A DNA stretch of 62,755 nt from Bacteroidales bacterium (GTDB lineage: Bacteria; Bacteroidota; Bacteroidia; Bacteroidales; WCHB1-69): positions 1-62,755 of the forward strand of contig JAQUWC010000003.1 of NCBI GenBank assembly GCA_028693085.1. The letters are read 5' to 3'. The notes under the pieces are model-generated. The model made no database searches and was not told the DNA's origin. It saw only the letters and a list, made by a program, of their open reading frames with translations. The position numbers and the translations under genes were made by a program. Positions 24,379-62,687 of the stretch are shown in pieces. How positions within the stretch are numbered: position 1 is the first letter of the stretch; every line of letters starts with the position of its first letter.

Positions 24379-27300
24379 ATGAAAAAAGTGAGTTTATTTT
24401 TGTCTGTGATTTTGTTCATGACTATAGAATTAAAATCACAAATTATTATCGTAGAAAATGAAAATTTCGAAACCTATCTATCTACATGGACTGTTCAACC
24501 CACATACGCTTGGATGCCTAATACAAATTTGTATGTAAGCGGGAATCAGTCTTATGTGGGATTTGTTCCGGCACTTAATGGTGATTCGGTATTGTTTACA
24601 ACCCCTTTTTATAATTTGGTTAATTATTCGCAAGTCAAGCTTTATTTTAATCATATATGTAAGGTTAGCAACCAAGATTTGTGTCAAATAGAATATAGAG
24701 AAAATCATCAAAGTGCAGTTTGGAAACCTATTCCTGTTTCATCCTACGAAGGAAATGGAATATATAAACATATGCGCTTTCATGATTCATCCTACGTTGA
24801 ATGGAAAAATGATAGTCTGTTAGCGGTTCCTGATAACACATGGTGGAAACGTGAAGTTTTTGATATTTCCAATGAAGTATGCTTTGCTAATGTACAATTT
24901 CGGTTTAAAATAAAAAAAGGAAATACAACAGGCACCCATTTTTCCTCTGGATGGTTCATAGATGATTTTATCATTCAAGCTTCGGTTCACCCGATTGTGC
25001 CTCCTGAATTGTCGTTTATAACTACTTATCCTGATACTGTTTTTGAAACGGGACCTTTCCCTTTTATCGCCAAAATTAAGTCAAGAACCTTGGCTCCGCT
25101 TAATATACCCGTATTAAAGTATACATCTACATATAATCAGATAGTTACTCACGATTCCATTGTTATGACAGCTGTGGAAGGGGATTCCATTTGGAGCGCT
25201 ACTATACCACAACACGTATACGGTACAGAAATTCAATATTCTGTTTTTGCAGAAGATACAATGGGGAATAATGATTTCAGACAAGGGCATTTTCACATCA
25301 AACGTCTTCCTCCTTACGTCTTAAATTCCGTGGCATTGCATAAAATGGATGCTCCCGATACTGTAGAAAAGTATAATACTTTGATGCCCGTACTAGTTAC
25401 AATAAAAAATAAGGGATTAAATAATTTACAATCAGCTAATATACAATGGTCGGTAAATGGAATAACCCAAACATCCGTTAATTGGTCGGGGAATTTGCCA
25501 GATGGGTTTCAAGATCAAGTTGTTATTGGATCCTATTTGTCAGGAATGCATGGTACATATGATGAAATATGGGTGTGGGTAAAACTACCCAATGGGGTGA
25601 GTGACTCCATTCTGAATGACGATACATTGAAATTAAAAATTTATAATTGCAAAGAATTGTTTGATGGAGACTATATTATTGGACAAAATCCTTTATCGGA
25701 CTTTGCAACCATAAATCTTGCTTTACAGTCATTAAAAAATGCTGATTGCATCAGAGGAGATATTAGGTTTCAGTTAGCGTCAGGAACCTATACTGAGAAC
25801 ATTGATCTGACAAATTTCGCCAATTATTTGAATGGATATTCTCTGACATTAACCTCATTGGCTAATCATAAAGATAGTGTTGTTTTAAATGATACAGCAG
25901 GAACCTTAATTACCATTAATAACACAAATAATATTTATATAAACAGTCTAACGTTAGATGTTGCTCAAAGAGGAACTTATGCGATTGAATTTAAAGGAAG
26001 TGCAAACAATATAGAAATTCGGGATTGTAATATATATGCAAATCCTACGGCTGTTACAGAAGCTTACGCCGGAATAATGAAATCGGAAAACGTGAATGGC
26101 ATAGCAAACAATGTACGTATCATCCATAATGTGTTTGATGGAGGTTTTTTTAATGTTTTTATATTTGGGGGGAATCAAAATTCTTATGCAAATGGATATA
26201 AAATAGATGATAATTTATGTGTAAATGCTGAAAGTAGAGGTATTCATTTATGTTATTTTGAAGCTAGTAGTGTTTCAAATAACCAAATTTATTCTCGCAC
26301 TACAAAACCTAATAATAATTATTTTGTGTATAATTTGGTTTTAGTTTATGGAGTTGTTGATGAAGTAATAGGCAACAAATTAATGATTGATCGTCCTTTA
26401 TCAACTACTAATACGTATTGTCTATATTTATGGAATTTAAATACATCTGTACCTAATCGTGTATTAGTATCCAATAACGAAGTCCGTCTAATTGATAGTA
26501 GTTCGATTACGTATGGTGTTTATACACATACGGCTAAATATGATTTTTTACATAATTCTTTTTACATTCATTCAAAAGTAATTGGGGGTTTAGGCTTACA
26601 TGTTTATAATAGTACGGCTACTATTAATAACAACAGTATTCATTGTATCGGTATGTCTCCTATAGATTTTAGTAGTAGCAGTGTTATTTCAGATTATAAT
26701 AATTTAGTGGGAACAAATTTTCAATTAACGCAATTCAAGGCAAGCAAAGGAACAGATTCAAATTCAGTCAGTATAATACCTGCCTATATCAACGTATCCA
26801 ATAGCTTAGAACTATCCGATTATTCGTCGTTTACATGTCCGCGTTTGCCGAATGTAATATTTGATATAAATACCAATTACCGAACTTCAATAACAACCAT
26901 GGGGGCGTATTCCATCCCCATTTGGGAGGGTTATAACTTAGTGATGCATGCTTTAGTGAGTCCAAGTGTCTTAGAGTATGCAGCTTGTGATGTGCCGGCT
27001 GTATCGGATATCAGAGTAAGTGTTAGAAATAATGGAACCGAATTGATTGATTTCAGTAATACGCCCATGCAATTATCGGTGAAAGTCAATGGCGCAGTGA
27101 GTTTTCAAATAGATACTATTATAAGTTCGGGTTTATTGGCAATAGGAGCGAACGATACGTTTACCGTTACTTCTATGTTTCCAACTTCAGCTATCGGCAA
27201 TTATAATATCAGCGTTTATTTAACGTATGCTTTAGATACCCTACATTCAGATGACACATTGTATGCTGTTTATGTGGTAAGTAGAATCAACTTGCCTTAT

Positions 27301-29097
27301 GATGTAGATTTTAGTTATAATCCTCCGGAATTATGGGTAACTTCTTTAAGTGGAGATATTGTATGGGAACAACAAAGCGGTTCTGGTACGCAGCCCGACA
27401 TTGCACCGGTTTTTGGAAATGGACGCTTAGTGTTTAGGGGTGCCGAAGAAACAGGCTCTTTATCGCAAGCCATTTTTAAAGGAATTGATTTAACCTCTGC
27501 ATCACATCCTCGTTTGGGATTTTGGTATGCACATGATAATACGTTTGGGAGAGATGTTGTTGTTGTGAAATTAGCAACAAATGATTCTTTGTCGCCCATA
27601 ATTTTAACTGCTGTCTTGCGTTATGATCCGAGTTATGCAAATCCAGGATGGAAATATTATGAAATAGACTTATCCCCTTATCAAATGGAAAACTGTGTGA
27701 GCATTATATTTGAAGCATCAGGATTTGGAACGGGAAATCAAAATATAGATAGAATTCGTATCTTTGGATATCAGGATTTAAAATTATCATTACTCATGCC
27801 TGATTTGGATAGTTTCACAAACTGCGATCTCTTCAATAAACCCATTCAAGTTGTTCTTGAAAATTTAAGTACACAGCAAATTATTCTTCCACCTAATACG
27901 GAAATAAAATTGAAAATAAATGCTCCTCAACCTATGAATTATTCCATCCCTGTCAATGGCGTGCTTGAAGGCAATGCTGTAGATACTTTTTTATTGCTTG
28001 ATTCATTTGATTTTTCGCTGTCACAAAGCTATGATTTAACAGCATATATTCAAAGTGTTGATAGCAATTCAATCAATGATACAGATCATGTAATTTATAC
28101 GCTTAATCCTGACATAGCATTAGATTCAATAGGAGGAGTAGATGCTTTTCATTGTAAACAAATTGGTGAAACAGTATATGTGAGTGCCTTTTTGCAAAAT
28201 ATAGGTAATGTGGCTTTGAATAATATTCCTCTGCAAATTACAATTAATCACACTCATACTATTTATGACACCGTGTATACTGCTTTATTGCCCGGGAATA
28301 GTATACAATATCATTTCACTAAACCTTATATAGTACCCAATGCAACACAAGTTCAGCCATATTATCACATTTCTGTTAAAGCAAATTATCCCTGTGATGC
28401 CCAGACGTTGAATGATGAAATAGCTTTTCTTGCTTGTGTGGAAATGGATGCTGTATTTGACCTACGTATAAATGCAATCAACAAACCTCAACAAGGACAT
28501 TGTGATAAAGGATTGACGGATTTATATGCAAAAATTGCATTTATAAATCAAGGGGAAGAAGATTTGTATGATGTTGTTTTGTGTTTGACCATTGATAGTG
28601 CTCACCATATCATGCAAACTCTAAATGATACTTTATCACATATAATGGCGAATTCTACCGTATATTATGAGTTTTCAAAACCTTATTTGGTGCCAAATAT
28701 GAAATCAGTGGAAGATACCTATACGCTGAGTGTTTATTTTGAACGCATGGATAGCGACACCAATGCATTGAATGATACGCTTCGTATGCAAGCTTGTGCT
28801 GTTTTTAATGATGTAGATGTGCGAGCTTATTCTTCTATAAATTGGAATATGGGACAAAATATACCCAATCCGGCATGGACAAAAACTCAAATTCCTTATT
28901 CCATACCTCAGGAGGATAACGTAATTTTCAGTGTAATGAGTATTAACGGCCAATTGCTTTACAGAGAAGAAATCCAAGCTGATGCCGGTTCTCATTTTCT
29001 GGAAATAAATACACAAACGCTGTCTGCCGGTATTTACTATTACAGCATGGAATTCCAAGGTCAACGCATCGTAAAGAAAATGACGATACAGAAATAA
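24379..29097 (+). CDS. giant T9SS-secreted modular surface protein, paralog 1 (1572 aa)
   Basis: It has a signal peptide (MKKVSLFLSVILFMTIELKSQ). The domain order is an N-terminal jelly-roll/MAM-like domain (FNHICKV motif), an Ig-like DTVFETGPF...FHIKR domain, a CARDB-like domain, one beta-helix module, the shared C-terminal cassette and a type A CTD. Confidence 0.92.
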   Translation: MKKVSLFLSVILFMTIELKSQIIIVENENFETYLSTWTVQPTYAWMPNTNLYVSGNQSYVGFVPALNGDSVLFTTPFYNLVNYSQVKLYFNHICKVSNQDLCQIEYRENHQSAVWKPIPVSSYEGNGIYKHMRFHDSSYVEWKNDSLLAVPDNTWWKREVFDISNEVCFANVQFRFKIKKGNTTGTHFSSGWFIDDFIIQASVHPIVPPELSFITTYPDTVFETGPFPFIAKIKSRTLAPLNIPVLKYTSTYNQIVTHDSIVMTAVEGDSIWSATIPQHVYGTEIQYSVFAEDTMGNNDFRQGHFHIKRLPPYVLNSVALHKMDAPDTVEKYNTLMPVLVTIKNKGLNNLQSANIQWSVNGITQTSVNWSGNLPDGFQDQVVIGSYLSGMHGTYDEIWVWVKLPNGVSDSILNDDTLKLKIYNCKELFDGDYIIGQNPLSDFATINLALQSLKNADCIRGDIRFQLASGTYTENIDLTNFANYLNGYSLTLTSLANHKDSVVLNDTAGTLITINNTNNIYINSLTLDVAQRGTYAIEFKGSANNIEIRDCNIYANPTAVTEAYAGIMKSENVNGIANNVRIIHNVFDGGFFNVFIFGGNQNSYANGYKIDDNLCVNAESRGIHLCYFEASSVSNNQIYSRTTKPNNNYFVYNLVLVYGVVDEVIGNKLMIDRPLSTTNTYCLYLWNLNTSVPNRVLVSNNEVRLIDSSSITYGVYTHTAKYDFLHNSFYIHSKVIGGLGLHVYNSTATINNNSIHCIGMSPIDFSSSSVISDYNNLVGTNFQLTQFKASKGTDSNSVSIIPAYINVSNSLELSDYSSFTCPRLPNVIFDINTNYRTSITTMGAYSIPIWEGYNLVMHALVSPSVLEYAACDVPAVSDIRVSVRNNGTELIDFSNTPMQLSVKVNGAVSFQIDTIISSGLLAIGANDTFTVTSMFPTSAIGNYNISVYLTYALDTLHSDDTLYAVYVVSRINLPYDVDFSYNPPELWVTSLSGDIVWEQQSGSGTQPDIAPVFGNGRLVFRGAEETGSLSQAIFKGIDLTSASHPRLGFWYAHDNTFGRDVVVVKLATNDSLSPIILTAVLRYDPSYANPGWKYYEIDLSPYQMENCVSIIFEASGFGTGNQNIDRIRIFGYQDLKLSLLMPDLDSFTNCDLFNKPIQVVLENLSTQQIILPPNTEIKLKINAPQPMNYSIPVNGVLEGNAVDTFLLLDSFDFSLSQSYDLTAYIQSVDSNSINDTDHVIYTLNPDIALDSIGGVDAFHCKQIGETVYVSAFLQNIGNVALNNIPLQITINHTHTIYDTVYTALLPGNSIQYHFTKPYIVPNATQVQPYYHISVKANYPCDAQTLNDEIAFLACVEMDAVFDLRINAINKPQQGHCDKGLTDLYAKIAFINQGEEDLYDVVLCLTIDSAHHIMQTLNDTLSHIMANSTVYYEFSKPYLVPNMKSVEDTYTLSVYFERMDSDTNALNDTLRMQACAVFNDVDVRAYSSINWNMGQNIPNPAWTKTQIPYSIPQEDNVIFSVMSINGQLLYREEIQADAGSHFLEINTQTLSAGIYYYSMEFQGQRIVKKMTIQK
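28846..29094 (+). other. T9SS type A C-terminal sorting domain of paralog 1
   Basis: The sequence is NMGQNIPNPAWTKTQIPYSIP...GIYYYSMEFQGQRIVKKMTIQK. It shows the Por_Secre_tail pattern (NxPNP near the start, G.Y.Y near the end, K-rich terminus). Confidence 0.85.
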
Positions 29098-29200
29098 CGG
29101 TTACTTTAATATAGATGAGCTTATTATTATGTAGCAGCCTTTTTGATGCTTACATTCAATTACTGATTTTTGTACTAAAACACAGATAAACAGTCAACAA

Positions 29201-29231
29201 AAAAGGGATGTAAATTTATCACATCCCTTTT
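29201..29231. terminator. bidirectional terminator hairpin between giant gene 1 and pta
   Basis: The sequence aaaagggatgt-aaatttatc-acatccctttt forms an 11-bp stem flanked by A-runs and T-runs on both sides. Confidence 0.7.
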
Positions 29232-29252
29232 AAATATTTAAATATTATCTTA

Positions 29253-30251: not shown

Positions 30252-30295
30252 ATCTTTTAAAAATTATTTATTTTTAGGTAAAATTTTAATTCCGA

Positions 30296-30303
30296 CAAAA
30301 TTA
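30296..30303 (-). promoter_or_regulatory. candidate -7 box (TAATTTTG on minus strand) for pta
   Basis: The plus-strand sequence caaaatta lies about 45 nt upstream of the pta ATG. Confidence 0.4.
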
Positions 30304-30629: not shown

Positions 30630-30637
30630 TACTTTTG
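30630..30637 (+). promoter_or_regulatory. candidate -7 box TACTTTTG for the DUF4837-like gene
   Basis: It matches TAnnTTTG and lies 55 nt upstream of the ATG at 30692. Confidence 0.45.
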
Positions 30638-47975: not shown

Positions 47976-47987
47976 AAATGTAAAAAA

Positions 47988-48018
47988 GTGAGGGTTTCAT
48001 TTTGAAACCTTCACTTTT
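47988..48018 (+). terminator. Rho-independent terminator between giant genes 2 and 3
   Basis: The sequence gtgagggtttc-atttt-gaaaccttcac forms an 11-bp stem with one G-U pair and is followed by tttt. Confidence 0.7.
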
Positions 48019-48053
48019 AAAAAAAGTTAATTAATAATTAAATCAATATAAAG

Positions 48054-51000: not shown

Positions 51001-54000
51001 CTACTTATGGAGTAGAGTTTATCGATGGAGCTTTGGATGTACATTTCTATGCTTGTAATATTTATGCCAATTTATTGTCCACATCTTCTTCGTATGTGCC
51101 GGTTTATTATTCTGGAAGCAATGGTTCAGGAAAACGATTGGAAAATGTTAGTTTTGTTAAAAATAAATTGGAGGGTGGCTATGCCAGTTTCTTTTTATAT
51201 TATCCCGGTTCCGGTGAAGATACCAGTATGAGTCAGATTGTTATCGATAGTAATATCATGTTGAATGCATACTATTACGGTGTACGAGTTTATTCCTACG
51301 GATATTTTCCAAGTATATCGTATAATACAATATCGATGCGTAATAGCTCTACAACCAATTATGTAATATGTTTCGAAGGAAGTTATAATACCATCGATAA
51401 CATGATAGGAAATAAAATCCGTTTTGGCACAACCTCAAGTAGATACGGCATTTATATTAGTAGTGCTAATTTGAACGAAAGTCCTTTATACAAAGCATCC
51501 GGACCAGCCTTAATTGCTAATAATGAAATTATAAGTACAGGAGGTTCGTCGAATTATGGTATTTATTTTGCAAACACAAACGTAAATGCAAAGGTGCTTC
51601 ATAATTCAATCTTATTGTCAGGTACTTCTACCAGTTATGCAATTCGTATCCCAACGATGAGTGCCGAATATGCCTTAAATATTAAAAATAATGTGTTTGT
51701 TACAACTTCTACCGGGACAGCTTATCCTTTGTATGCTTCTTCCGCAAATTATGTGAAACAATCCTATGGAACTACTTTAGATTATAATAATTATTATAGT
51801 ACGGGTGAATACCTGGCTTATATTTCCGGAACAAAATCAAGCTTACTCGATATACAACTAGCCAGTGAACAAGATGCACAGTCCATCAGTCAAAATCCCG
51901 ATTTCGTGAATCCATCGCTTGATTTACATACTTCTAGTACGGCTATGTTAGTACCACTTGATTCAACGATGATGTATGATATTGATAGAAATCAAAGATT
52001 AATGTTTACAAACATGGGTTGTTATCATGATTTTGTAGCTAATAATTTGGATGTGTCCTTACAGACTCTTGTGTCTCCTACTGAAACATCACCTACTAAT
52101 CAAAATACAGCCTTAGAGGTTATGATTAATAATAGTGGTATAGATACATTACGGTCCGTACGTTTTTATTGGTCAGTCAATCAATCTGCCATTGATTCTA
52201 TGGATTATGCTTGTTTGATTTCTCCTCTGCAAAACAGTGAAGTTGTTCTACTTGATTCCGTTATGTTGCATGGTGGAGAGAATACAATCAAGGTTTATAC
52301 AGCTTATCCCAACGGTTTAGTAGATGCTAATACCGTCAATGATACCTTATTAGTACATATTGCTGCTTGTGATACCATGTTGAATGGTGAATATATAGTT
52401 GGAACAGGCGGCGATTTTGCCAATGTAGAAAAAGCTTTCAACACATTGATGCGTTGTGGTATTAATGGGCCGGTAGAATTAAAATGCATGCCGTTTACTT
52501 CAGGTAGTTTCAAACTGGATGTGAATGTCCCGGGTGCTGATTCGATCAATACGGTTACGTTTAGCTCTTTAAGTGGAAATCCTTCCGATGTAAAGATTGT
52601 TAGCACTGATGGAAATGCCTTAACATTAGATGGTGTAAGCAATTATATATTCAAAAATATTAGCATTGATGCCACTGCAGGTACCAATGGTGTGGAATTT
52701 TTAAATACCTGTAGTAATATTCTGTTCTACGGATGCAATATTATGGCTAATCCAACGACAACATCCTCTTCTTATACGGCAGTACGTTATTATCAAGCAT
52801 CCGGTAGCACTACGTATTTATCCAATATAAGTTTTATAAAAAATAAAATAAGCGGTGGTTATCATAATATGTATTTCTATTATGCTTGTGGCAGTTCTTC
52901 CAAAATGTCAGAATCTCTAATTCGTATCGACAGCAATGAGTTGACAGATGCTTATTATTACGGTATTTATGCTTATTATTACGGGAATTATAAAAGTGTT
53001 TCATATAATACAATAACTTCTCGAGCCACCAGCAGTACATTTTATGCCATTTATTTTAATAGGTATAATACCGTTCAAGATGGAGTGATTGGCAACCGCA
53101 TTTTCTTACAAAATACATCCACCGGATATGGCATTCGTACCTATTATATCAATAGAAGCACATCCTATGCAGCTCAAGGCAATGCTTTGATTGCAAATAA
53201 TGAAGTGATAGGCAATGCCGGAGGATCGACCTATGGGATATATACTCAATATTCTAATGCCGATTTCTATAATAACTCCATATATTTAACGGGTAGTAGT
53301 TCATGTTACGGTTTATACATTAGTTCAACCAGCTCAACCTATAGTATGAACTTTTTAAATAATCTATTTATTACTACTACATCCGGTACAGGATATCCGA
53401 TCTATACCGGTACGGCAAATTATGTTACAACTAGCTATGGTACGGTCTTAGATTATAACAATTATTATAGTACAGGTAGTTATGTTGGATATATTAGCGG
53501 TACAAAAACTAGTTTATCCGCTTTAAAATCTGCTACCCTACAAGATACAAACTCTGTAAGTATTCAGCCGCAATTCCTTGGCATTAACAATGGATTAGAG
53601 TTGTTAAATTACAGTGGATTGAGTTGCTTGAAGTTGGATGGAGTTAGCCATGACATCCGTAATGTAGAAAGAGATTCCTTGACTTTTATGGGATGCTATA
53701 CTCCAAATAGTTTGGATGTTGCATTAGCCCCTAGTACCTTAACTCCCGATTTAGCCAATGTACATCAAGGAATAATAGTTGCGGTAAAACTACAAAATCC
53801 AGGAAAAACTACATTAACAACATCCACGATTACCTTATCCGTTGATGGAGTCGTTACGAAAGTAATCCCATGGTCAGATAGTTTGGTACCTGGAGCAGAA
53901 ATACCACTCTACTTAGATACTATGAATGTAAATGCAGGTTCCAACGATTTAAGAATATGGATTTCTAATCCAAATGGCAGTGTTGATTTGAACAACGACA

Positions 54001-57000
54001 ATGACACCTTACAATATAATATTTACGGTTGTGATACGCTATTGAATGGCCAATATACGATAGGAGTCAGTGGAGCAGATTATGTGAGTTTTCAAGACGC
54101 GCTACAAGCAATGATACGATGCGGTATTAACGGACCGGTAACTTTTAGGGTGAATGATGGTGTATACAATGAAAATCTATACATAAATACAGCTTTAATT
54201 CTCGGTTCAAATTCACAAAATACCATTTCGTTTGTTTCGACAAGCGGTAATGCGGCTAATGTAATACTAGGAAATCATCAGGCATTAGGAGCAAGTGCTT
54301 TGGTACTTGATGGAGCCAGCAACCTTATTTTTAAAGATATAACGATAGGATTAAACAGCGAAAATACCGGTGTTGCAGTTGAATTCTTAGGGATGTGCGA
54401 GAATATTGAATTTAATTCCTGTATCATTCAAACCTATGATCAAGCAACCTCAAACACGTATTGCGGCGTAAAATATTATAATTCCAGCTCATCATCAAAT
54501 TATTTGAAAAATGTAAAATTTGTACATAATCATATTGATGGTGGATATTATAATTTCTGGTTTTATTATTCCGCCGGCACTTCGTCGAATATGGGAAATA
54601 TGTCGGTAATCATCGATAGCAATACTTTGAGTAATGCTTATTATGCCGGTTTTTATACATATTATAACGGAAATTACCCCAGTGTTTCTTATAATACTAT
54701 TACTTCCCGTACCAATGAAAATGTGGGAACAGATTGGTATGGAATATATACCTATTATTACACCAACATTGAAAATATTGTAGGAAATAAAATTCAAAAT
54801 ATCAATGTACGCATTGCTCAACCGAGAGGTATTTATATTCATTACTATTTCAATTATACCTCTTACAGTGGTTCCGGTCAAGGATTAATTGCTAATAATG
54901 AGATTTTGTTATATGGTGCTAACGCCACTAATACATATCAAAACTTTGCCGGATTATATATTTATTATCCTTATTCGAGTACAAAGATATTACACAATAG
55001 TATTTATTTGTATGGAGCAGATCCCGCTACTTTAACAGGTGCCGCTTTATATGCGTATAATACAAGTACATCATATCTATTAAAAATACAAAATAATGTT
55101 TTTAGTACAGCGATAGCGAATAATGCAAATACGTGTTTAATTCCTTATTACATAAGTTCGTTAACCTATGCAAGGCCTAATTATGTAAATAGTGATTATA
55201 ATAATTACTACAACGCATATAATCAAAATGTGGCATATGCTGGGGAAGAATATACATTGGTAGATTTACGCGCAGCAAATATGCAAGATGCACATTCTGT
55301 CCAATACAATCCCGGATTTGCTAATTTACCTTTTTCTTTGATGCCTACTCATTGGACGATTTGTCCAAAAGAGGATCTTGTTTCGTTCGATATGTTAGGG
55401 AATGCCCGTGTAGTACTTACTTATAGTGGATGTTATCATGCCAATTATAGTAGCGATGCCGGTATAGTCGAGTTTATGAATATAGGCGAAAAAAATACGG
55501 CCGGACTTAATCCGTTAGATGTTCGCCTTGTGAATTATGGCAGTGCTGTCTTAAACAGCGTAACGATTCGTGCCTCTGTGGATGGTGTCCTAATACCTGC
55601 CGTTAACTTGACGGGCCTTGCATTAGTGCAAAATCAAGATACTATTATACATATTGGAAACTTTACTTCTGTATTGAATCATACAAACACTATCAAAGCA
55701 TGGACATCCAATCCTAACGGCATGCTCGATCAAAACAATTTGAACGATAGCATGTCCATTACTACCAAAGGGTGTGTTGAAGTTTTATCGGGGGTATATG
55801 ATATTGCAGGAGGAAACAATGATTTTGCCACTATTCAAGATGCTTTAAGTGCCTTAGAAGATTGTGGTATTGCAGGTCCTGTTGTCTTACGTCTGGCTAA
55901 CGGTATCTATCCAGATTTAAATAACGTAGGAACATTTACCGGAACCAACGAAACAAATACAATAACCTTTACTTCCCTTAGCGGAAATGCCGATGACGTA
56001 GTTATTGGCAGTCCTACTGATGTAGCTTTGTCACTCTTCGATGCCGGTCATTTACGTTTTGAAAATATTAGTATAGGGAATAGTTCATCTACTTATGGCG
56101 TTCAATTTATAAATCACAACGAAGATATAGTTTTTTATCAATGTAATATTTATTCTGCTCCGGGTATGAGTAGTACCAGTTATGCCGGAATTTATTACTA
56201 TAATTCTTCCGGCTCTACCAATACCTTAAAGAATGTGCGTATTGTAAAAAATAATATTTCGGGAGGGTATGCTAACATCTATTTCTATTATCCGGGAGGA
56301 AGTTCATCCAATATGACCAATATGTCGGTTACCATCGATAGCAATATTATGACCGATGCATATACGTATGGTCTCTATTCTTATTATAATGCAATGTATG
56401 AAAGCATTTCTTATAATACCATCATTACAGCTTCCGCTAGTACAACTCAATATGGTCTTTATTTAAATTATTACAATACAATTGTACATGGGATTAATGC
56501 AAACCGTCTGCGCATGCAATCTACTTCATCTGCATATGGAATAAGATGCTATTATATAAATAATCCTTCCTATGGAGCTCAATCTAATGCGCTAATTTCT
56601 AATAATGAGATTGTATGTCCGGAAGGGTCTTCGACCAAATACGGAATTTACACCTATTATACGAATGCTGATTTTTATAATAATTCCGTTTATTTAGCCG
56701 GAACCAGTACCAATTACGGTTTCTATATCAGTACAACCAGTTCCTCCTATTCCATGAATATTAAAAATAATATCTTCTATACGGCAACCACAGGTACAGG
56801 CTATCCGATTTATACCGGTACAGCCAATTATGCTAAAACAACCTATGGTACCGTCATAGATTATAATAATTATTATAGTACAGGTACATACGTAGGATAT
56901 ATAGCAGGTACTAAATCTACAATTTTCGATTTGCGAGCATCTACAGGCCAAGACCAAAATTCAGTTAGTACAAATGTAAGTTTTATGGATATTACGAAGG

Positions 57001-60000
57001 ATTTGCGATTACTTGCTTATTCCGGACTCAGCTGTCCGAAAATAGTGGATGAAGATATCGATGGGAAAAGCAGAAATGCTTCTACCTTTATGGGATGTTA
57101 TGAATCCGATTCCTTAGATGCTGCAATTTCTATGGGTGATATTAGTCATAATAGCACACAACTTCCATTGCCGGTATATGCAGTATTAACCAATAAGGGC
57201 TTAACAACTTTAAATAATGCCATACTTACTTGGTCGTTTAAAGATACGGTACGCATGTCGACACCTTGGACTGGTTCCTTAGATCAAGGAGAGACAGATA
57301 CCGTACTTTTGGGGAATGTAAGTTTAACCTACGGATCAGTTAATAATCTAAAATTATGGGTAAGTCTCCCCAATGGAGCTACAGATAATAATGTGGAAAA
57401 TGATACCGTAAAAGATGTAGTGTATGGATGTTATGGTCCCTTGAGTGGAGTATATACCATTGGAGGTCCAACTGCCGATTTTGCTACGATAGCCGACGCA
57501 TTGGAACCTATTACATATTGCGGTATTGTTGGACCCGTTACCTTTAGCCTTAACGATGGGACCTTTAATGAAAATGTGGTTATCAATATTCCTATCCCTG
57601 GTGCCAGTATACTCAATACAATTACCTTTACATCTACTAGCGGCAACCCGGCCAACGTGGTTATTGGTAGTAATCTTGAAAAAGCGGGTACGGCTTTGTT
57701 GATAGAGGGAATGAACTATTTGAATTTTACCAATATTACCATAGGACTTAACTCTGAATATACCGCTACAGCTGTAGAACTTAAAGGTATGTGCGAAAAT
57801 ATCCTATTTACAGGATGTAGAATACAATCCTATGACCAAGCCAATAGTACGATGTATTGTGGAGTTAAGTACCAAAGCTATAGTGGTGCTACAAATTACT
57901 TAAAGAATGTGAAATTTATTGGAAATCACATTGATGGGGGATATTATAATTTCTATTTATACTATTCTGCAGGTTCCTCTACTAATATGGAAGCTAGCGC
58001 TATGTCGGTTACTATCGATAGCAATGTCTTAAGCAATGCTTATTATGCCGGTGTTTATTCTTATTATTACGCTAACTATCCGAGTATTTCTTACAACACT
58101 ATTTTGGCACGTACCTCCGGAGTAGTCAATGCTGATTGGTATGGAATTTATACCTATTACTATCACAATGTAGAAAGAATGGTAAACAATAAAATCAAAA
58201 GTACTCATGCAAACATTACCAATCCACGCGGAATTTATATATATTACTACTTTAATTATTCTTCCTATGGTGGACTTGGCAGAGGGTTGATTGCTAACAA
58301 CGAAATTATTCTCCAAGGAGCTAATATGACAAGCGATTTCAATGCATTTACAGGGATATATATCTATTATCCTTATTCCAATATGCAGATTCTACACAAT
58401 TCTATTTATTTATATGGTACTGATCCCAATACGATGGCCGGTTGTGGAATTTATGCATATAACACAACGACATCCTACCAAATAACCATTAAGAATAACG
58501 ATATAGCCACCTATAAAGACGGCAGCAGTTTGTGCTATTTATATCCCTATTACGTTACTTCAGCTACCTATGCTGATGCTTCTTATATTGTTACAGATTA
58601 TAATAATTATTACAATGATAAGAATGCAAACATTGCATTTACTGGAGTAGAGCACACCTTAGCCAGCTTAAAGGTTGCTAATTTGCAAGATGAAAATTCT
58701 TTGAGTATCAATCCCGGATTTGGTTTGAATCCTACGAATCTTGTCCCTCAAAATTGGTCAACCTGTTTGATTGTGGATGAAGTTAACAATGATATCCATG
58801 GTGATCTACGATTGGGAAGAATTACCTATAAGGGTTGTTATACCGCTATTTTTGGCAATGATGCAGGAGTTACTGAATTTGTAGGTTTAGGCCAAAGAGT
58901 TACCGCCGGTTCCAACAATATTCAAGTTCGGATATTTAATTTCGGAAGTACTACCTTGCAAAGTGTCAATGTAACGGTGGAAGTTGATGGGATAGTACAA
59001 CCCACGATGAATCTGACAGGACTTAATTTAGCAAAATATCAAGATACGGTTATAACTGTAGGAACTTTCATGGCCTATGTGGATGCTATAAACGATTTAA
59101 GAGCATGGACATCCAATCCCAATGGAATTGTCGACGATAATTTCATCAACGATACCATGGCAATGCAAACTACCGGATGTTTTTTGGTGTTAGCCGGTGT
59201 GTATGATGTAGGAGGTGGCAATAACAACTTTGCCAGTTTAGAAGATGCTATGGAGGTATTAGAAAATTGTGGAGTGTCAGGTCCTGTTATATTACGCATA
59301 GCTGCCGGAAACTATCCTAACTTAGATACTTTGGGGGCTTATTTCGGAACCAGCGATGTTAATACGGTTACCTTTACTTCCTTAACCGGAAATGCAAATA
59401 GTGTTGTTTTAGGCGATACTATTAATACCGCTCTTACATTTGTTGATGCAAAACACCTGCGTTTTGAAAATGTAACTATTGGGAATACTTTATCCATGCG
59501 CGGGGTTGAATTTGTAAATACCAACGAAGATATTTCTTTCTATCAATGCAATATTTTGGCTACACCTGCGATGAACAGCTCGGACTATGCTCCTATTTAT
59601 TACTATAACTCTTCTAGTTCTTCCCATACCTTAAAAAATATTCGTATTGTTAAAAATAATATATACGGCGGATATGCCAATATTTACTTTTATTATCCGG
59701 GAGGTAGCTCATCAAATATGACAAATATGTCGGTTACAATTGACAGCAATACCATGACTAATGCTTATTATGCAGGATTGTATTCTTATTACTATTCTTA
59801 TTACAAAAGTGTGTCATATAATACCATTGTAACCGCTGCAGTAAGCGCTACACAATATGGTTTGTATGTGTATTATTACAACACTGTTGAAAATGGGATT
59901 ATCGGAAATCGTATACATATACAATCTACATCCGGAGGCAATGGTATTCGTTCGTATTATACCAACAGAAGTACGGCTTATGGTGCAAGAGGAAATGCTT

Positions 60001-62687
60001 TGATAGCGAATAATGAAATCATTAAGTTGCAAGGCTCTTCTACTTCCTATGGCTTTTATCAATATTATGGGAATGTTGATTTTATCAATAATTCCATATA
60101 TATAGCCGGCACCAGCACCTGTTATGGTATTTATGCAAGCACCATGAGTTCTACTTATAGCCGAAGATTCCTGAATAATAATATTTATACCAATACGACC
60201 TCATCTTCCAATTATCCTATCTATTATTCCAGTACAAATTATGCCCTTCCTTCCTATGGAAACATAGCTGATTATAATAATTACTATGGAACAGGTGCAT
60301 ATGTTGGTTATGTAGGCGGAGCAAAGACAACAATAGCTGATTTACGTCAAGCTACAACCCAAGATGCGCACTCCATCAGTATTCAACAACAATTTGTTGA
60401 TCCTACACAAAATCTGGAATTGTTGGAATATAGCGGCATGATTTGTAACATGCATACGTCTGTCTTATCAGATATTAATGGTAAGAGTCGTACGCGTATT
60501 ACGCCTATGGGAGCTTACTCCGTACATATTTATGAGGGCTACGATTTAGGCCTCAGTGCTATCGTTGAACCGGTAAATACTACTGATGTGTTCTGTTATC
60601 AAGATTTTGCTTCTGTTCGTGTGGAAATGCAAAACAATGGTAGCTATCCTATCAACTTCTCGGCTCAACCCGTTACCCTGCATTTGGATGTTAGTGGTGC
60701 CGTTACCTATCAAAAAGATACTATGTTATTGATGGGTGGATTAACACAAACTGAAAAAAGTATTTATACTTTGACAAACCTATTGCCTGTTAGTCAGAAC
60801 GGTAATTACCACATCAAAGTATCGTTGGCTTTAGATGCAGATACCCTTCATTTTGATGATACCATACAAGCTATTTATGTCATCGATAAAATTGTGTTAC
60901 CCTACGAAGTAAACTTCGATTCAGTTCCTAAAGGATTAGTGTTTAAACAAATAAACGGCACATCCGGCTGGACAGTTGAATCGGGCGATGGTATGAATCC
61001 TACCATTACTCCTTCACACGGACAAGGTCGTTTGCAATTTGCTTCGGCTACCGATAGAGGTTCTTTGGCTTCGGTAACCTTGCAACCCATCAATTTAAGA
61101 GGGACGGTTCAACCTAAATTAGAATTTTGGTATGCACACGATAATGCACCGGGAAGAGACTATACCGATGTGAAGATTTCGGTTGACGGTGGATTTACCT
61201 ATCAAACGATATTAAACGTACAACGTTCCAATTCTGCCTATACAACACCTACCTTTGTACGTCATGAAGTCGATTTATCACCCTATACTTCTTACTCTTG
61301 CGTTATACTAGGCTTTGAAGCAGGAAGCTTCGCCGGAGGTAATCAAAACATCGATAGCATTTCTATCAGTTCCTTGCAAGACCTATTGGTTGGATTTGAT
61401 TTGATTCCACAAAATGATTTCATCGCATGTGAATTAGATAATAAAACCTTAGCCGTTACCTTAAGCAACTTAACTACGCAAGATTTCTTGTTCGAAAGAA
61501 ATCCAAGCGAGTTGACGGTAGAAGTAAGCGGTGCCATTACTACTACCTATACTTATCCTTTAGTTAGTGGTAAAGTAACAGGAAGTTCTATCTTGACCGT
61601 TGTGCTGGATACTAATTTTGATTTCTCCATCAACGGAACCTATGATTTTAAAGCCTATATCCGAAAAGCAGACGACAATAAACTGAACGATACTGCCGTT
61701 ACATCACGTTTAATCAATGTTGATCTCGATATGTTGAGCATTGAACCGATTGGCGATAAAAGGATTGGCGATAGAATCTATCCGACACTTAGTTTTATGA
61801 ATACAGGTAATATGCCGATTAAAAACATTCCTTTGCATTTACAAATCAATAAAGCGGCTCATATAAGAGAAAGTGTCGATACCTTGTTGAATCCGGGTGA
61901 TACAATAAGCTATACCTTTATCACACCATCCTATGTGCCGACGGTTACTGAAACACAGCCTTTCTATTTACTCGAAATCGAATCAGAGTTAAGCTGTGAT
62001 GGTAATCAAGTCAATGATTTGGTGAGCGGTTATTATTCCGTGGTGTTCGATGAATATATTGATTTAGTCATTACTTCCGTTGAGAAACCCGATCCAAATG
62101 AGTGCGATTCAGGGTTAACTACCGTATATCCTATATTAAATATCAAGAATATAGGTACAGGTATTGCCAATAATATCATTCTTTATGTTACGGTCGACAG
62201 TGCAGGCACCATTCTAAAAAGTTATTCCGAAGAAGTGAACCTTATTGCAAACGGCGATAGCTTATTACATAGCTGTGTTACCGGATACAATGTGCCTAAT
62301 TTAAACGGTCAATATAAAGTAACTCTCTTTGTTAGCGTAGCAGATGAATCCGATCCCGTGAATAATACGGTTGATATCATGGCTTGTGCCATCTTAAACG
62401 ATGTAGGTGTCGATGCCTATAAGACTGTGGATTGGTCGATGGATCAAAACATCCCCAACCCGGCTTCTGCTAGTACACGCATCACATATCACATACCGCA
62501 AGATGGCTTGGTACGTTTCAGCTTAACGACTATTACGGGACAGCTAATCTATCGTCAAGATATTCCATCCGCAGCCGGATCACATGCTATTGATTTCGAT
62601 ACGCAACATCTGGCTGGTGGTATCTATTATTATAGCATGGAATATCAAGGCCAACGCATCGTGAAGAAGATGACCATACAGAAATAA
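48054..62687 (+). CDS. giant T9SS-secreted modular surface protein, paralog 3 (4877 aa)
   Basis: It has a signal peptide (MKNMLRVLSGIMFICALSSNIVTAQ). The domain order is one GTGT/YSFSR domain, a CARDB-like domain, 7 tandem beta-helix plus CARDB modules, the shared C-terminal cassette and a type A CTD. It is a single uninterrupted ORF of 14,634 nt. Confidence 0.92.
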   Translation: MKNMLRVLSGIMFICALSSNIVTAQNLITVGTGTNTYAYAPAYSLYNYSFSRMLYLSSDLQALSSGGKITHIAFYISTAQSGYTLNNQTVYMRGTTVASENTGYIDPTVTSNGCTQVWTGNLNVSNTGWVTIPLSTPFTLPAGQNLEIFWNNMHGSWFSTVYWQSTGVSYNAVSRGYSDNSFASATTSSLATATERPNIQITFLPSGRTAAVTEIVSPRSSIMLGGLLTAQANIANLGTDTITSCRINWSVNNVLYPPVYDSTLLLAGAAPTSITLGNYMCDSDQFNNITVWIDQAMPYDSAQVDDTLSFDFYACSYQFNGVYTVGGPTADYATLGEVLIHLTNCGVTGPTTFILNTGVYNQPIVLSGSIPGLSEINTVTFTSATQDADSVLIYAVGTTVQLNAAKHLRFSYLTLGNTSINSTYGVEFNNGAKDIDFYGCKINSYVFATSSSYAPVYYYGASGSGYKLEDVTFINNTLDGGYASMYLYYSGSGSGTDMSSMVIDSNVMTNAYYYGVYNYYYTYCSSFSHNVISMRASATTNYGMYFGGSYNTLDRMEGNKVRFRNTGSRYGIYFGSYLNRSESYNAFGPAYIVNNEILSDGGSTNYGIYLGSYPNAYLVYNSVYVAGSGTSYALYFPTMNSTYSLTVKNNMFIAAGSGTPYPLYSSSIDYVKPYNGTILDYNNYYGSKNSIAYIGNAVSDLQSMQTLTEQDVHSQNVYPNFVNLSQSLHTDGSMMIVESDVETKFDVEGDKRVIYTNMGCYNDYVISLNNDVTISNLLSPLDWQAPSTNIALDIKITNKATDTLKNVRIYWSINNSPVNFINYNCNLAWYEESEAITLDSIVLQSGVNSLLVYTTLPNGLSDANVFNDTLQAEIISCVPLSGNYTVGSQLADFVTLDEAIDYLNSCGVSGPTTLLLHAGDYVQTMTLTGSIPGLSASNAVTFTSLAQDPDSVKIYTNSTALELVEAKHLRFSYLTLGSTSSKSTYGVEFIDGALDVHFYACNIYANLLSTSSSYVPVYYSGSNGSGKRLENVSFVKNKLEGGYASFFLYYPGSGEDTSMSQIVIDSNIMLNAYYYGVRVYSYGYFPSISYNTISMRNSSTTNYVICFEGSYNTIDNMIGNKIRFGTTSSRYGIYISSANLNESPLYKASGPALIANNEIISTGGSSNYGIYFANTNVNAKVLHNSILLSGTSTSYAIRIPTMSAEYALNIKNNVFVTTSTGTAYPLYASSANYVKQSYGTTLDYNNYYSTGEYLAYISGTKSSLLDIQLASEQDAQSISQNPDFVNPSLDLHTSSTAMLVPLDSTMMYDIDRNQRLMFTNMGCYHDFVANNLDVSLQTLVSPTETSPTNQNTALEVMINNSGIDTLRSVRFYWSVNQSAIDSMDYACLISPLQNSEVVLLDSVMLHGGENTIKVYTAYPNGLVDANTVNDTLLVHIAACDTMLNGEYIVGTGGDFANVEKAFNTLMRCGINGPVELKCMPFTSGSFKLDVNVPGADSINTVTFSSLSGNPSDVKIVSTDGNALTLDGVSNYIFKNISIDATAGTNGVEFLNTCSNILFYGCNIMANPTTTSSSYTAVRYYQASGSTTYLSNISFIKNKISGGYHNMYFYYACGSSSKMSESLIRIDSNELTDAYYYGIYAYYYGNYKSVSYNTITSRATSSTFYAIYFNRYNTVQDGVIGNRIFLQNTSTGYGIRTYYINRSTSYAAQGNALIANNEVIGNAGGSTYGIYTQYSNADFYNNSIYLTGSSSCYGLYISSTSSTYSMNFLNNLFITTTSGTGYPIYTGTANYVTTSYGTVLDYNNYYSTGSYVGYISGTKTSLSALKSATLQDTNSVSIQPQFLGINNGLELLNYSGLSCLKLDGVSHDIRNVERDSLTFMGCYTPNSLDVALAPSTLTPDLANVHQGIIVAVKLQNPGKTTLTTSTITLSVDGVVTKVIPWSDSLVPGAEIPLYLDTMNVNAGSNDLRIWISNPNGSVDLNNDNDTLQYNIYGCDTLLNGQYTIGVSGADYVSFQDALQAMIRCGINGPVTFRVNDGVYNENLYINTALILGSNSQNTISFVSTSGNAANVILGNHQALGASALVLDGASNLIFKDITIGLNSENTGVAVEFLGMCENIEFNSCIIQTYDQATSNTYCGVKYYNSSSSSNYLKNVKFVHNHIDGGYYNFWFYYSAGTSSNMGNMSVIIDSNTLSNAYYAGFYTYYNGNYPSVSYNTITSRTNENVGTDWYGIYTYYYTNIENIVGNKIQNINVRIAQPRGIYIHYYFNYTSYSGSGQGLIANNEILLYGANATNTYQNFAGLYIYYPYSSTKILHNSIYLYGADPATLTGAALYAYNTSTSYLLKIQNNVFSTAIANNANTCLIPYYISSLTYARPNYVNSDYNNYYNAYNQNVAYAGEEYTLVDLRAANMQDAHSVQYNPGFANLPFSLMPTHWTICPKEDLVSFDMLGNARVVLTYSGCYHANYSSDAGIVEFMNIGEKNTAGLNPLDVRLVNYGSAVLNSVTIRASVDGVLIPAVNLTGLALVQNQDTIIHIGNFTSVLNHTNTIKAWTSNPNGMLDQNNLNDSMSITTKGCVEVLSGVYDIAGGNNDFATIQDALSALEDCGIAGPVVLRLANGIYPDLNNVGTFTGTNETNTITFTSLSGNADDVVIGSPTDVALSLFDAGHLRFENISIGNSSSTYGVQFINHNEDIVFYQCNIYSAPGMSSTSYAGIYYYNSSGSTNTLKNVRIVKNNISGGYANIYFYYPGGSSSNMTNMSVTIDSNIMTDAYTYGLYSYYNAMYESISYNTIITASASTTQYGLYLNYYNTIVHGINANRLRMQSTSSAYGIRCYYINNPSYGAQSNALISNNEIVCPEGSSTKYGIYTYYTNADFYNNSVYLAGTSTNYGFYISTTSSSYSMNIKNNIFYTATTGTGYPIYTGTANYAKTTYGTVIDYNNYYSTGTYVGYIAGTKSTIFDLRASTGQDQNSVSTNVSFMDITKDLRLLAYSGLSCPKIVDEDIDGKSRNASTFMGCYESDSLDAAISMGDISHNSTQLPLPVYAVLTNKGLTTLNNAILTWSFKDTVRMSTPWTGSLDQGETDTVLLGNVSLTYGSVNNLKLWVSLPNGATDNNVENDTVKDVVYGCYGPLSGVYTIGGPTADFATIADALEPITYCGIVGPVTFSLNDGTFNENVVINIPIPGASILNTITFTSTSGNPANVVIGSNLEKAGTALLIEGMNYLNFTNITIGLNSEYTATAVELKGMCENILFTGCRIQSYDQANSTMYCGVKYQSYSGATNYLKNVKFIGNHIDGGYYNFYLYYSAGSSTNMEASAMSVTIDSNVLSNAYYAGVYSYYYANYPSISYNTILARTSGVVNADWYGIYTYYYHNVERMVNNKIKSTHANITNPRGIYIYYYFNYSSYGGLGRGLIANNEIILQGANMTSDFNAFTGIYIYYPYSNMQILHNSIYLYGTDPNTMAGCGIYAYNTTTSYQITIKNNDIATYKDGSSLCYLYPYYVTSATYADASYIVTDYNNYYNDKNANIAFTGVEHTLASLKVANLQDENSLSINPGFGLNPTNLVPQNWSTCLIVDEVNNDIHGDLRLGRITYKGCYTAIFGNDAGVTEFVGLGQRVTAGSNNIQVRIFNFGSTTLQSVNVTVEVDGIVQPTMNLTGLNLAKYQDTVITVGTFMAYVDAINDLRAWTSNPNGIVDDNFINDTMAMQTTGCFLVLAGVYDVGGGNNNFASLEDAMEVLENCGVSGPVILRIAAGNYPNLDTLGAYFGTSDVNTVTFTSLTGNANSVVLGDTINTALTFVDAKHLRFENVTIGNTLSMRGVEFVNTNEDISFYQCNILATPAMNSSDYAPIYYYNSSSSSHTLKNIRIVKNNIYGGYANIYFYYPGGSSSNMTNMSVTIDSNTMTNAYYAGLYSYYYSYYKSVSYNTIVTAAVSATQYGLYVYYYNTVENGIIGNRIHIQSTSGGNGIRSYYTNRSTAYGARGNALIANNEIIKLQGSSTSYGFYQYYGNVDFINNSIYIAGTSTCYGIYASTMSSTYSRRFLNNNIYTNTTSSSNYPIYYSSTNYALPSYGNIADYNNYYGTGAYVGYVGGAKTTIADLRQATTQDAHSISIQQQFVDPTQNLELLEYSGMICNMHTSVLSDINGKSRTRITPMGAYSVHIYEGYDLGLSAIVEPVNTTDVFCYQDFASVRVEMQNNGSYPINFSAQPVTLHLDVSGAVTYQKDTMLLMGGLTQTEKSIYTLTNLLPVSQNGNYHIKVSLALDADTLHFDDTIQAIYVIDKIVLPYEVNFDSVPKGLVFKQINGTSGWTVESGDGMNPTITPSHGQGRLQFASATDRGSLASVTLQPINLRGTVQPKLEFWYAHDNAPGRDYTDVKISVDGGFTYQTILNVQRSNSAYTTPTFVRHEVDLSPYTSYSCVILGFEAGSFAGGNQNIDSISISSLQDLLVGFDLIPQNDFIACELDNKTLAVTLSNLTTQDFLFERNPSELTVEVSGAITTTYTYPLVSGKVTGSSILTVVLDTNFDFSINGTYDFKAYIRKADDNKLNDTAVTSRLINVDLDMLSIEPIGDKRIGDRIYPTLSFMNTGNMPIKNIPLHLQINKAAHIRESVDTLLNPGDTISYTFITPSYVPTVTETQPFYLLEIESELSCDGNQVNDLVSGYYSVVFDEYIDLVITSVEKPDPNECDSGLTTVYPILNIKNIGTGIANNIILYVTVDSAGTILKSYSEEVNLIANGDSLLHSCVTGYNVPNLNGQYKVTLFVSVADESDPVNNTVDIMACAILNDVGVDAYKTVDWSMDQNIPNPASASTRITYHIPQDGLVRFSLTTITGQLIYRQDIPSAAGSHAIDFDTQHLAGGIYYYSMEYQGQRIVKKMTIQK
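48996..60510 (+). repeat. 7 in-frame tandem ~1.7-kb coding modules (Tyr/Asn-rich parallel beta-helix + CARDB-like)
   Basis: The conserved module-initial Cys codons (C..L.G.Y.VGG...DF.T) are at 48996, 50682, 52368, 54030, 55773, 57429 and 59178. The periods are 1686, 1686, 1662, 1743, 1656 and 1749 nt. Modules 1-2, modules 3/5/7 and modules 4/6 form three subtypes. Confidence 0.85.
62436..62684 (+). other. T9SS type A C-terminal sorting domain of paralog 3
   Basis: The sequence is SMDQNIPNPASASTRITYHIP...GIYYYSMEYQGQRIVKKMTIQK. Confidence 0.85.

Follow-up and report, generated by a model that had tools for sequence, protein, structure and literature searches.

Three giant mosaic type A T9SS cargo proteins from a Bacteroidales bacterium as candidate surface adhesins or fibrils

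Here we describe three genes, G1, G2 and G3, from a stretch of 62,755 nucleotides of a Bacteroidales bacterium (contig JAQUWC010000003.1 of assembly GCA_028693085.1; the whole stretch is called the window in the following). They code for giant mosaic proteins, each of which combines a predicted signal peptide, a selection from one shared set of modules and a C-terminal sorting domain (CTD) of type A of the secretion system of type IX (T9SS). Pfam and NCBIfam scans of the three proteins revealed no catalytic family, and the modules all have all-beta folds that are typically seen in surface or adhesion proteins (CARDB, beta-helix, MAM-Ig/Eph/reelin/CBM22-like, choice-of-anchor J). With moderate confidence we read the three proteins as surface-anchored adhesins or fibrils without enzymatic function, with a stalk formed by beta-helix and CARDB units and a tip that is lectin-like.

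Results and Discussion

Architecture of the three genes

All three genes are read from the forward strand. G1 (24379..29097, +) is an open reading frame (ORF) of 1572 amino acids (aa; 176 kDa, isoelectric point (pI) 4.9) with the module order signal peptide-i-ii-iv-V-A-B-C-CTD, G2 (40386..47975, +) has 2529 aa (280 kDa, pI 4.4) with the order signal peptide-i-4x(ii-iii-iv)-A-B-C-CTD, and G3 (48054..62687, +) has 4877 aa (533 kDa, pI 4.6) with the order signal peptide-iii-7x(iv-V)-A-B-C-CTD, as assigned by hidden Markov models (HMMs) of the modules. All products are acidic, with predicted pI values of 4.4–4.9. Together the genes take up 26,943 nt or 42.9% of the window, which matches the ORF lengths and the share of about 43% given in a preliminary description of this DNA that had been made from the sequence alone.

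The module boundaries were derived from BLASTP searches of 200-aa chunks, MAFFT alignments and module HMMs built from the window copies. The preliminary description had proposed mosaic paralogs made from one shared domain set; chunked BLASTP, module HMMs and hhalign agree on this, the first two also reproduced its module formula for each of the three genes, and all of its motifs (FNHICKV, GW.IDDF, DTVYNTGPF...FYVKR, GTGT...YSWSR..YLA.EL and IKNKG..L.SC.I.W..NG) are present in the alignments. Between copies the shared blocks gave E-values of 1e-20 to 0 in the chunked BLASTP, and the G3 repeats show a pairwise protein identity of 34–58%, so that a chance likeness of the blocks is excluded. At the profile level module iv, cassette part A and the repeats within part C are homologous to each other (hhalign 96–98.7%), and no homology was found by hhalign among i, ii, iii, V and B. 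The MAM-like modules i and B might have shared a deep homology, as might i, ii and iii, but both ideas were rejected because the hhalign probabilities stayed below 6%. None of the modules was found by the module HMMs in any other ORF of the window.

Within G3 the fourth repeat resembles the sixth and the fifth the seventh, suggesting the duplication of a two-repeat unit. The ii-iii-iv repeats of G2 are 38–53% identical to each other and the three C-terminal cassettes 35–39%, and from this divergence the module copies appear to be old. Since repetitive genes easily collapse or become chimeric during metagenome assembly, G1–G3 might be seen as repeat misassemblies or as decaying pseudogene remnants, which we regard as extremely improbable. 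An assembler would not confuse the G3 repeats, whose protein sequences are far too diverged for this, the ORFs run without interruption for 4.7–14.6 kb, and independent metagenome-assembled genomes (MAGs) hold orthologues of nearly equal length (1585 aa in locus L001, 1595 aa in L002 and 2537 aa in L049). Moreover, structural residues are kept across 214 copies of module V, which points to purifying selection. On the grounds of repeat identity and of orthologues of the same length an assembly artefact was rejected.

Export signals and sorting domains

In all three proteins the N-terminus shows an n-region that is basic, then a hydrophobic h-region and after it a glutamine (..LKS|Q, ..GYS|Q and ..VTA|Q), a pattern that we read by eye from the sequence and that agrees with the signal peptide proposed before for each of them. 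A glutamine directly after the signal peptidase I cleavage site is a habit in Bacteroidetes, and its presence in G1–G3 fits this. The true start of G2 is possibly an internal methionine (M12 or M14).

At the other end, the type A CTDs are located at 28864..29094 (+) in G1, 47742..47972 (+) in G2 and 62454..62684 (+) in G3. Their scores with TIGR04183 (cutoff 23 bits) were 39.6 bits for G1 and 26.5 bits for G2 in scans of the whole proteins and 33.6 bits for G3 when the last 77 aa were scanned alone. As all three lie above the cutoff, the earlier assignment of a type A sorting domain to each protein stands. With Por_Secre_tail PF18962 (gathering score 27) the scores were 33.2, 26.5 and 25.0 bits for G1, G2 and G3, and in the whole-protein scan of G3 the CTD was scored by Pfam only, with these 25.0 bits and therefore below the gathering score. 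The G3 CTD is 45–48% identical to those of G1 and G2.

A 677-aa protein encoded at 16645–18678 (+) carries a type B T9SS CTD (CHU_C PF13585 49.5 bits; TIGR04131 43 bits, cutoff 35). It is unrelated to G1–G3 and has a 55% identical homologue in the syntenic locus L002. As a type B T9SS cargo is thus also encoded in the window, the organism probably uses the T9SS.

N-terminal and repeated modules i, ii and iii

Module i is an N-terminal jelly roll with a MAM-like fold located at 24439..25002 (+, aa 21–208) in G1 and, from alignment and HMM, at 40482..41051 (+, aa 33–222) in G2, the G1 copy being 41% identical to aa 9–211 of G2. Its invariant residues in 35 copies include W45, F90, K95, D100, W115, Y123, W142, W155, E159 and W192. 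It is followed by the Ig-like sandwich ii (DTV..TGPF ... F.IKR), which in G1 spans 25021..25311 (+, aa 215–311; alignment and HMM). Module i gave no match in Pfam or NCBIfam and module ii none in Pfam. We modelled aa 22–619 of G2, covering i-ii-iii-iv, and the best Foldseek matches of this model were the MAM-Ig-FN ectodomain of RPTPmu (2v5y/2c9a), meprin MAM, Eph ectodomains, reelin repeats and tandem CBM22. As far as the model can be trusted, these matches are recognition-type architectures of jelly roll plus Ig domain and i together with ii resembles MAM-Ig ectodomains by fold. The matches to RPTPmu MAM-Ig and meprin are in line with the jelly-roll/MAM-like module i and the Ig-like module ii of the preliminary description.

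Four tandem repeats of about 400 aa, each composed of ii-iii-iv, make up the central part of G2 (41070..45866, +, aa 229–1827). Module iii, a jelly-roll or lectin-like domain with the motif 'GTGT...YS.SR', also forms the N-terminus of G3 (48138..48665, +, aa 29–204), where it is 27–44% identical to the G2 copies; its length is about 175 aa and not about 190 aa as stated at first. With DUF4082 PF13313 module iii reached 19.1–26.0 bits, below the gathering score of 28.4, one copy matched instead Lectin_like PF18560 with sub-threshold 16.3 bits, and there was no NCBIfam match. A HMMER search against 1.84 billion cluster representatives resulted in 5,599 matches at E<=1e-3 and 517 at E<=1e-30. Many of the matching proteins have 2,000–6,700 aa with several copies of the module each, and those that bear a name in public sources are listed as fn3-domain, choice-of-anchor J or hypothetical protein, from MAGs of Bacteroidales or Prevotella. 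Ten other proteins with module iii were scanned and showed fn3, HYDIN-like Ig and Por_Secre_tail, with no catalytic family among them. Module iii is a very widespread domain without a curated model.

CARDB spacers and the C-terminal cassette

Module iv is a spacer with a CARDB fold, which in G1 is located at 25327..25650 (+, aa 317–424; assigned by HMM, hhalign 98% to cassette part A). In G3 it alternates with module V in seven tandem repeats of about 560 aa, each iv (CARDB) plus V (beta-helix), at 48681..60521 (+, aa 210–4156). On its own, module iv scored 16.2 bits with Pfam CARDB PF07705, below the gathering score of 22.7 bits. The iv sandwich in the model of G3 repeat 7 matched the CARDB structures 3idu and 2kl6 with a Foldseek probability of 1.0 (TMt 0.52–0.59), bearing out the CARDB-like module proposed earlier. 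Profile searches of the alignments A1, A2 and A3 against PDB sequences gave marginal CARDB matches only.

The cassette A-B-C precedes the CTD in all three proteins: at 26926..28863 (+, aa 850–1495, with A at 850–960, B at 956–1150 and C at 1146–1495) in G1, at 45873..47741 (+, aa 1830–2452) in G2 and at 60534..62453 (+, aa 4161–4800) in G3. A C-terminal cassette of about 700 aa common to all three had been described, and it is indeed shared, but it is a composite and not one unit, since A and C are homologous to module iv. It is made up of a CARDB-like domain (A), a choice-of-anchor-J/MAM-like jelly roll (B) and about three CARDB-like domains (C), with the CTD following. CARDB PF07705 was found in the cassette of G1 with 31.0 bits and of G2 with 42.6 bits. 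With the choice_anch_J model NF038128 (cutoff 30 bits) part B of G2 scored 32.8 bits and that of G3 15.4 bits, which is below the cutoff, and G1 gave no match. MAM PF00629 (cutoff 26.4 bits) yielded sub-threshold 13.7–16.6 bits, and there was a weak Reelin_subrepeat-B match in G2. As the B parts are 35–44% identical to each other, with that of G3 being 43–44% identical to that of G2, those of G1 and G3 are homologous to the B part of G2 that passes NF038128.

The beta-helix module V

The single V module of G1 (25654..26913, +, aa 426–845; 466 bits with the module HMM) is 25–33% identical to each of the G3 repeats. Module V is rich in serine (11.5%), tyrosine (10.9%) and asparagine (10.4%). An AlphaFold model of G3 repeat 7 (iv plus V; pLDDT 93.8, pTM 0.86) shows a right-handed parallel beta-helix with about twelve rungs, preceded by a beta-sandwich. 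All Foldseek matches of V were beta-helix proteins, and they are generic matches (E 1e-4 to 1e-1, TM 0.25–0.42, 10–12% identity). None of the eight V copies of the window matched a relevant model at E<=1 in Pfam or NCBIfam, PF13229 and PF05048 included. Relatives of V in sequence are few, with 23 matches in a word-indexed search; six of them (P0003, P0004, P0006, P0008, P0012 and P0013) carry PF13229 and/or PF05048, and several are named right-handed parallel beta-helix repeat proteins, from MAGs of Bacteroidota or Ignavibacteriae. Composition, model, Foldseek matches and these relatives all speak for the Tyr/Asn-rich beta-helix module of the preliminary description.

The conservation of V was calculated over 214 copies from the window and from related loci; positions of V up to R524 are given below in the numbering of the modelled construct, to which 3622 has to be added for G3 numbering. 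Conserved to at least 90% are eight asparagines, three glycines, one cysteine and a C-terminal cap, which in G3 numbering reads D4140...R4146...T4150..G4153.Y4155. The asparagines are 96–100% conserved and follow each other at the spacing of a rung, and from this pattern we interpret them as an Asn ladder. In an alignment of 27 sequences that includes distant beta-helix relatives the cap consensus is DI.G..R......GA.E; R524 (R4146) is still conserved to at least 90%, and D518 is absent from the listed conserved columns. As judged from the model, V is a right-handed parallel beta-helix with an Asn ladder.

Another, much shorter beta-helix ORF of 471 aa (37344–38759, +) lies between the genes for Ddl and shikimate kinase and reaches 33.4 bits with Pfam Beta_helix PF13229. 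It matches neither NCBIfam nor the HMM of module V and is a separate, small beta-helix protein.

A multigene family in uncultured Bacteroidales

We scanned 185,579 species-representative genomes for the cassette, which led to 185 confirmed stretches, and 77 loci were kept for analysis. All 77 are from MAGs of uncultured Bacteroidales, Lentimicrobiaceae or 'Bacteroidetes' out of anaerobic digesters, rumen, gut and sediments, and across them the full 723-aa cassette is 30–57% identical. As the best match is 57%, the species of the window itself is absent from the scanned genome collection. About 90 ORFs built from the same nine modules were identified in these loci with the module HMMs. Their grammars are i-ii-[iii]-(iv-V)n-A-B-C-ctd, i-(ii-iii-iv)n-A-B-C-ctd and mixtures of both, with a fixed order throughout: the i/iii head stands at the N-terminus in every case, the A-B-C-ctd base at the C-terminus, and the number of stalk units is variable. 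Many of the ORFs are longer than 4,050 aa, where they are truncated by the end of the 10-kb flank, and family genes often lie in tandem. Counting fragments, there are at least 15 family ORFs in the MAG ADurb.Bin234 and at least 11 each in UBA1195 and EPI_MAG_00023. By all these features G1–G3 belong to a large, uncharacterised multigene family of uncultured Bacteroidales/Lentimicrobiaceae-like bacteria, a description of which was not found in the literature searched.

The orthologues of G1 in L001 and L002 have the same architecture, and the gene order YceG - ORF856 - Mur ligase - G1 is kept in both. In L001 the Mur ligase is 83% identical and the G1 cassette 57%, thus G1 evolves faster than its neighbour, as would be expected of exposed surface proteins. 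Locus L049 of ADurb.Bin234 contains a G2-like gene with four ii-iii-iv repeats followed by a G3-like gene. In some members of the family (L075, L076, L061 and L059) cassette part C is replaced by inserts of 350–1,560 aa in which GEVED, PKD-like and CHU_C-associated Ig domains were identified, these domains leaving long parts of the inserts uncovered.

Proposed function and alternatives

From these findings we infer the following path. G1–G3 would be exported by Sec through their N-terminal signal peptides, and the T9SS would recognise the CTD and carry the proteins across the outer membrane; PorU and PorV are the background to what would follow there. The CTD would be removed and the new C-terminus joined to a surface glycolipid, as in type A cargo (PMC10202324, PMC4804311). 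The A-B-C cassette would then form the cell-proximal base, and the alternating CARDB/beta-helix units (iv-V, one to seven copies) or the ii-iii-iv units a semi-rigid stalk, the length of which would be set by the repeat number; such stalks could extend over tens of nm, and a rough estimate of about 10 nm per iv-V unit would put that of G3 at possibly around 100 nm. At the distal end the N-terminal jelly roll, MAM-like i in G1 and G2 and lectin-like iii in G3, would be the ligand-binding head, and by means of these proteins the cell would adhere to particles, to surfaces of polysaccharide or to other cells. With many paralogs per genome this could result in varied reach and specificity. An adhesin, coat or attachment function had already been named as possible in the preliminary description, and the evidence favours that class.

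Several points weigh against adhesins or fibrils. The support is wholly computational and the family is uncharacterised, T9SS core genes were not found within the window by neighbour-gene annotation, and the model of G2 aa 22–619 with its four all-beta domains is of moderate confidence (pLDDT 79.6, pTM 0.45). The type A cargo of this lineage may be either anchored or released; both are described for T9SS cargo (PMC10202324). The best PDB fold matches of V are mostly carbohydrate-active enzymes (CAZymes) of GH136, GH87, PL6 and CE8, with PfbA as the one adhesin. Finally, charged positions beside the ladder turns of V are semi-conserved in the 214 copies (D275 74%, K/R331 82%, E366 87%, D451 79% and D482 89%) and present in all eight copies of the window, and together they might make up a binding site for cations or sugars or even an active site.

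The last two points bear on the question of whether G1–G3 are multi-catalytic carbohydrate-active enzymes. V would then belong to an undescribed enzyme family as a divergent polysaccharide lyase, hydrolase, esterase or epimerase, with i, iii and B serving as carbohydrate-binding modules (CBMs) and the CARDB domains as linkers, giving surface-displayed depolymerases with up to seven active sites. The top Foldseek matches of V in the PDB (GH136 lacto-N-biosidase, GH87 alpha-1,3-glucanase, PL6 lyases, chondroitinase B, CE8 pectin methylesterases and AlgE4 epimerase) and the conserved charged residues flanking the Asn ladder fit such enzymes, as do the viral matches, which are tailspike or pectate-lyase-superfamily proteins, and the resemblance of module iii and of the domains of the G2 i-ii-iii-iv model to CBM22, lectin-like and xanthanase accessory domains. 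The host lineages also inhabit rumen and digesters, where polysaccharide degradation dominates. However, the fold matches are scattered over many unrelated CAZy families and include an adhesin, all eight V copies fail to match a Pfam or NCBIfam model even at E<=1, and not a single acidic, basic or histidine residue on the helix body of V reaches 90% conservation in the 214 copies. The sole invariant charged pair, D518 and R524, lies inside the C-terminal cap motif. K/R331 and E366, each one residue past a ladder asparagine on adjacent rungs, would fit a structural salt bridge, and the register of the semi-conserved charged residues relative to the ladder asparagines suggests structural or cation-binding roles. 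Beside G1–G3 no polysaccharide-utilisation locus, SusC/SusD, CAZyme neighbours or T9SS machinery operon was found in the window. We also considered a catalytic domain hidden in the large inserts of variant family members and rejected it, as only GEVED, PKD_6, Ig_7, CARDB and CTD were identified in three of them. Thus the preliminary statement that there is no recognisable catalytic domain holds for G1–G3 and for these relatives. The absence is well supported, although short of proof, since beta-helix folds are common in carbohydrate-active enzymes. A carbohydrate-active role for V is possible, and multi-catalytic enzymes as a whole appear quite unlikely to us.

The proteins might also be released or only loosely associated and form a matrix or coat, such as an S-layer-like coat, a biofilm scaffold or a sheath, with a role in protection (against phage, protists or harsh chemistry) or in structure rather than in specific binding. 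This would go along with the large share of the window taken by three genes and with at least 11–15 family ORFs per MAG, with rigid repeats in acidic proteins, and with CARDB, the 'cell adhesion related domain found in bacteria' of Pfam, which is common in archaeal and bacterial envelope proteins. The S-layer proteins TfsA and TfsB of Tannerella forsythia are type A T9SS cargo as well, and release of T9SS cargo, mentioned above, would suit a coat. S-layer proteins, however, are usually encoded by one or two highly expressed genes and not by a dozen paralogs with variable repeat numbers, and the strictly conserved aromatic-rich head (module i) and the head-stalk-base grammar resemble a binding device more than a lattice former. 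We consider a coat unlikely and prefer anchored adhesins or fibrils.

A more far-reaching idea, which we regard as doubtful, is that the nine-module kit is an undescribed combinatorial surface-fibril system. Duplication and module shuffling would yield varied lengths and heads, V would be a new glycan-recognising and possibly catalytic beta-helix family, and the fibrils would dock onto particles or partner cells in digesters and rumen; at least i, ii, iii and V would then represent new domain families, that of iii having thousands of members.

Anaerobic digesters and the rumen harbour abundant uncultured Bacteroidales and Lentimicrobiaceae. The family takes a large share of the coding capacity, with at least a dozen ORFs per MAG, yet it is nearly invisible to curated domain libraries, and defining its modules would improve the annotation of thousands of 'hypothetical' giant proteins. 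Binding and activity studies would find concrete targets in the head at the N-terminus, in one iv-V unit and in the conserved cassette of the base. If V is catalytic, it would be the founder of a new CAZyme family, and if it is not, G1–G3 would be among the largest type A T9SS cargo and a useful model for cargo export and anchoring.

Genomic neighbourhood

The genes flanking G1–G3 are housekeeping genes, namely Mur ligase, Pta, DUF4837, 2-hydroxyacid dehydrogenase, class V aminotransferase, Ddl and shikimate kinase, and an AraC regulator. The latter (39313–40164, −) is divergent from G2 across an AT-rich spacer of 221 bp and might control G2 and G3. A synteny of this regulator and other G2 neighbours with family genes elsewhere was rejected, as in the related loci examined conservation is confined to the neighbourhood of G1 (YceG - ORF856 - Mur ligase). 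G2 and G3 are separated by 78 bp (47976–48053), in which there is a hairpin with a 7-bp stem (GGTTTCA-ttt-TGAAACC) flanked by A/T runs. This hairpin may be a weak bidirectional terminator, so that G2 and G3 may be transcribed separately. In promoter and terminator scans around G2 and G3 the sites were no more numerous than in shuffled controls.

ORF856 (856 aa, 20290–22860, −) has no match in Pfam, NCBIfam or PDB except for a GspN-like tail with 19 bits. Beside the G1 orthologues it is found with 65% identity in L001 and 47% in L002, and in L053 and L062 homologues with about 30% identity are encoded a few kb or less away from family genes. ORF856 might code for a partner protein, or its position could simply reflect conserved chromosomal context.

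At the left end of the window a Fic/DOC-family protein (666–1427, −) adjoins a tyrosine integrase (1440–2726, −), and near the integrase the GC fraction is locally 0.39 (4001–6000) against about 0.31 around it; together they may mark the edge of an integrated mobile element. The SecA protein (1093 aa, 12061–15342, −) has a large insertion in its DEAD-like domain, with a 290-position profile spanning residues 5–586, and this insertion is probably typical of the lineage.

Comparison with known systems

TfsA and TfsB of Tannerella forsythia and the HagA/gingipain adhesin regions of Porphyromonas gingivalis are likewise Bacteroidales cargo with type A CTDs and Ig-like or jelly-roll modules, and they show the surface display after CTD removal that is proposed for G1–G3 (in part after PMC4804311). 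They differ from G1–G3 in being much smaller, in lacking beta-helix modules and in showing no sequence likeness beyond the CTD, and domains of the Cleaved_Adhesin/DUF2436 type were not detected in G1–G3 in the Pfam scans. The choice-of-anchor J (NF038128)/MAM proteins are related through part B of the G2 cassette, and i plus ii resembles RPTPmu MAM-Ig by fold, whereas B of G1 and G3 as well as module i reach no curated threshold. Beta-helix CAZymes and phage tailspikes (GH136 LnbX 5gqc, GH87 5zru/6k0p, PL6 1dbg/6qps and CE8) share the overall fold with V and are its best structural matches, and several of them have an N-terminal Ig-like domain before the helix. This likeness is at the fold level only (TM up to 0.45, 10–13% identity), with no family HMM match and no invariant catalytic constellation in the 214 V copies.

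SprB and RemA of Flavobacterium johnsoniae are very large (SprB about 6,500 aa), repetitive, all-beta, acidic, non-enzymatic surface filaments exported by the T9SS, as described in part in PMC8986121, and G1–G3, as read here, are similar to them in all this. SprB ends in a type B CTD (TIGR04131), contains SprB-type repeats and has a PorP/SprF-like partner of its own, whereas G1–G3 possess type A CTDs and beta-helix, CARDB and choice-of-anchor J modules; neither SprB repeats nor PorP/SprF domains were found in G1–G3 or the window neighbours, and no sprF-like gene is adjacent. SprB and RemA serve in gliding, for which there is no evidence in the host of G1–G3. PfbA of Streptococcus pneumoniae, pertactin and FHA use a right-handed parallel beta-helix as a non-catalytic adhesive or stalk module on the cell surface, and PfbA (4mr0) is a weak Foldseek match of V (E 1.2e-2, TM about 0.3, 12% identity). 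These proteins reach the surface by sortase/LPXTG or type V secretion system (T5SS) routes and have a single beta-helix, unlike the up to seven CARDB-separated helices of G3.

In summary, type A T9SS cargo, CARDB and choice-of-anchor J are the known elements of G1–G3, and modules i, ii, iii and V, for which no curated model was found, appear to be the new ones. Although family membership fails on the defining features, by analogy the closest functional relatives would be the giant T9SS adhesins SprB and RemA and the beta-helix adhesins PfbA, pertactin and FHA.

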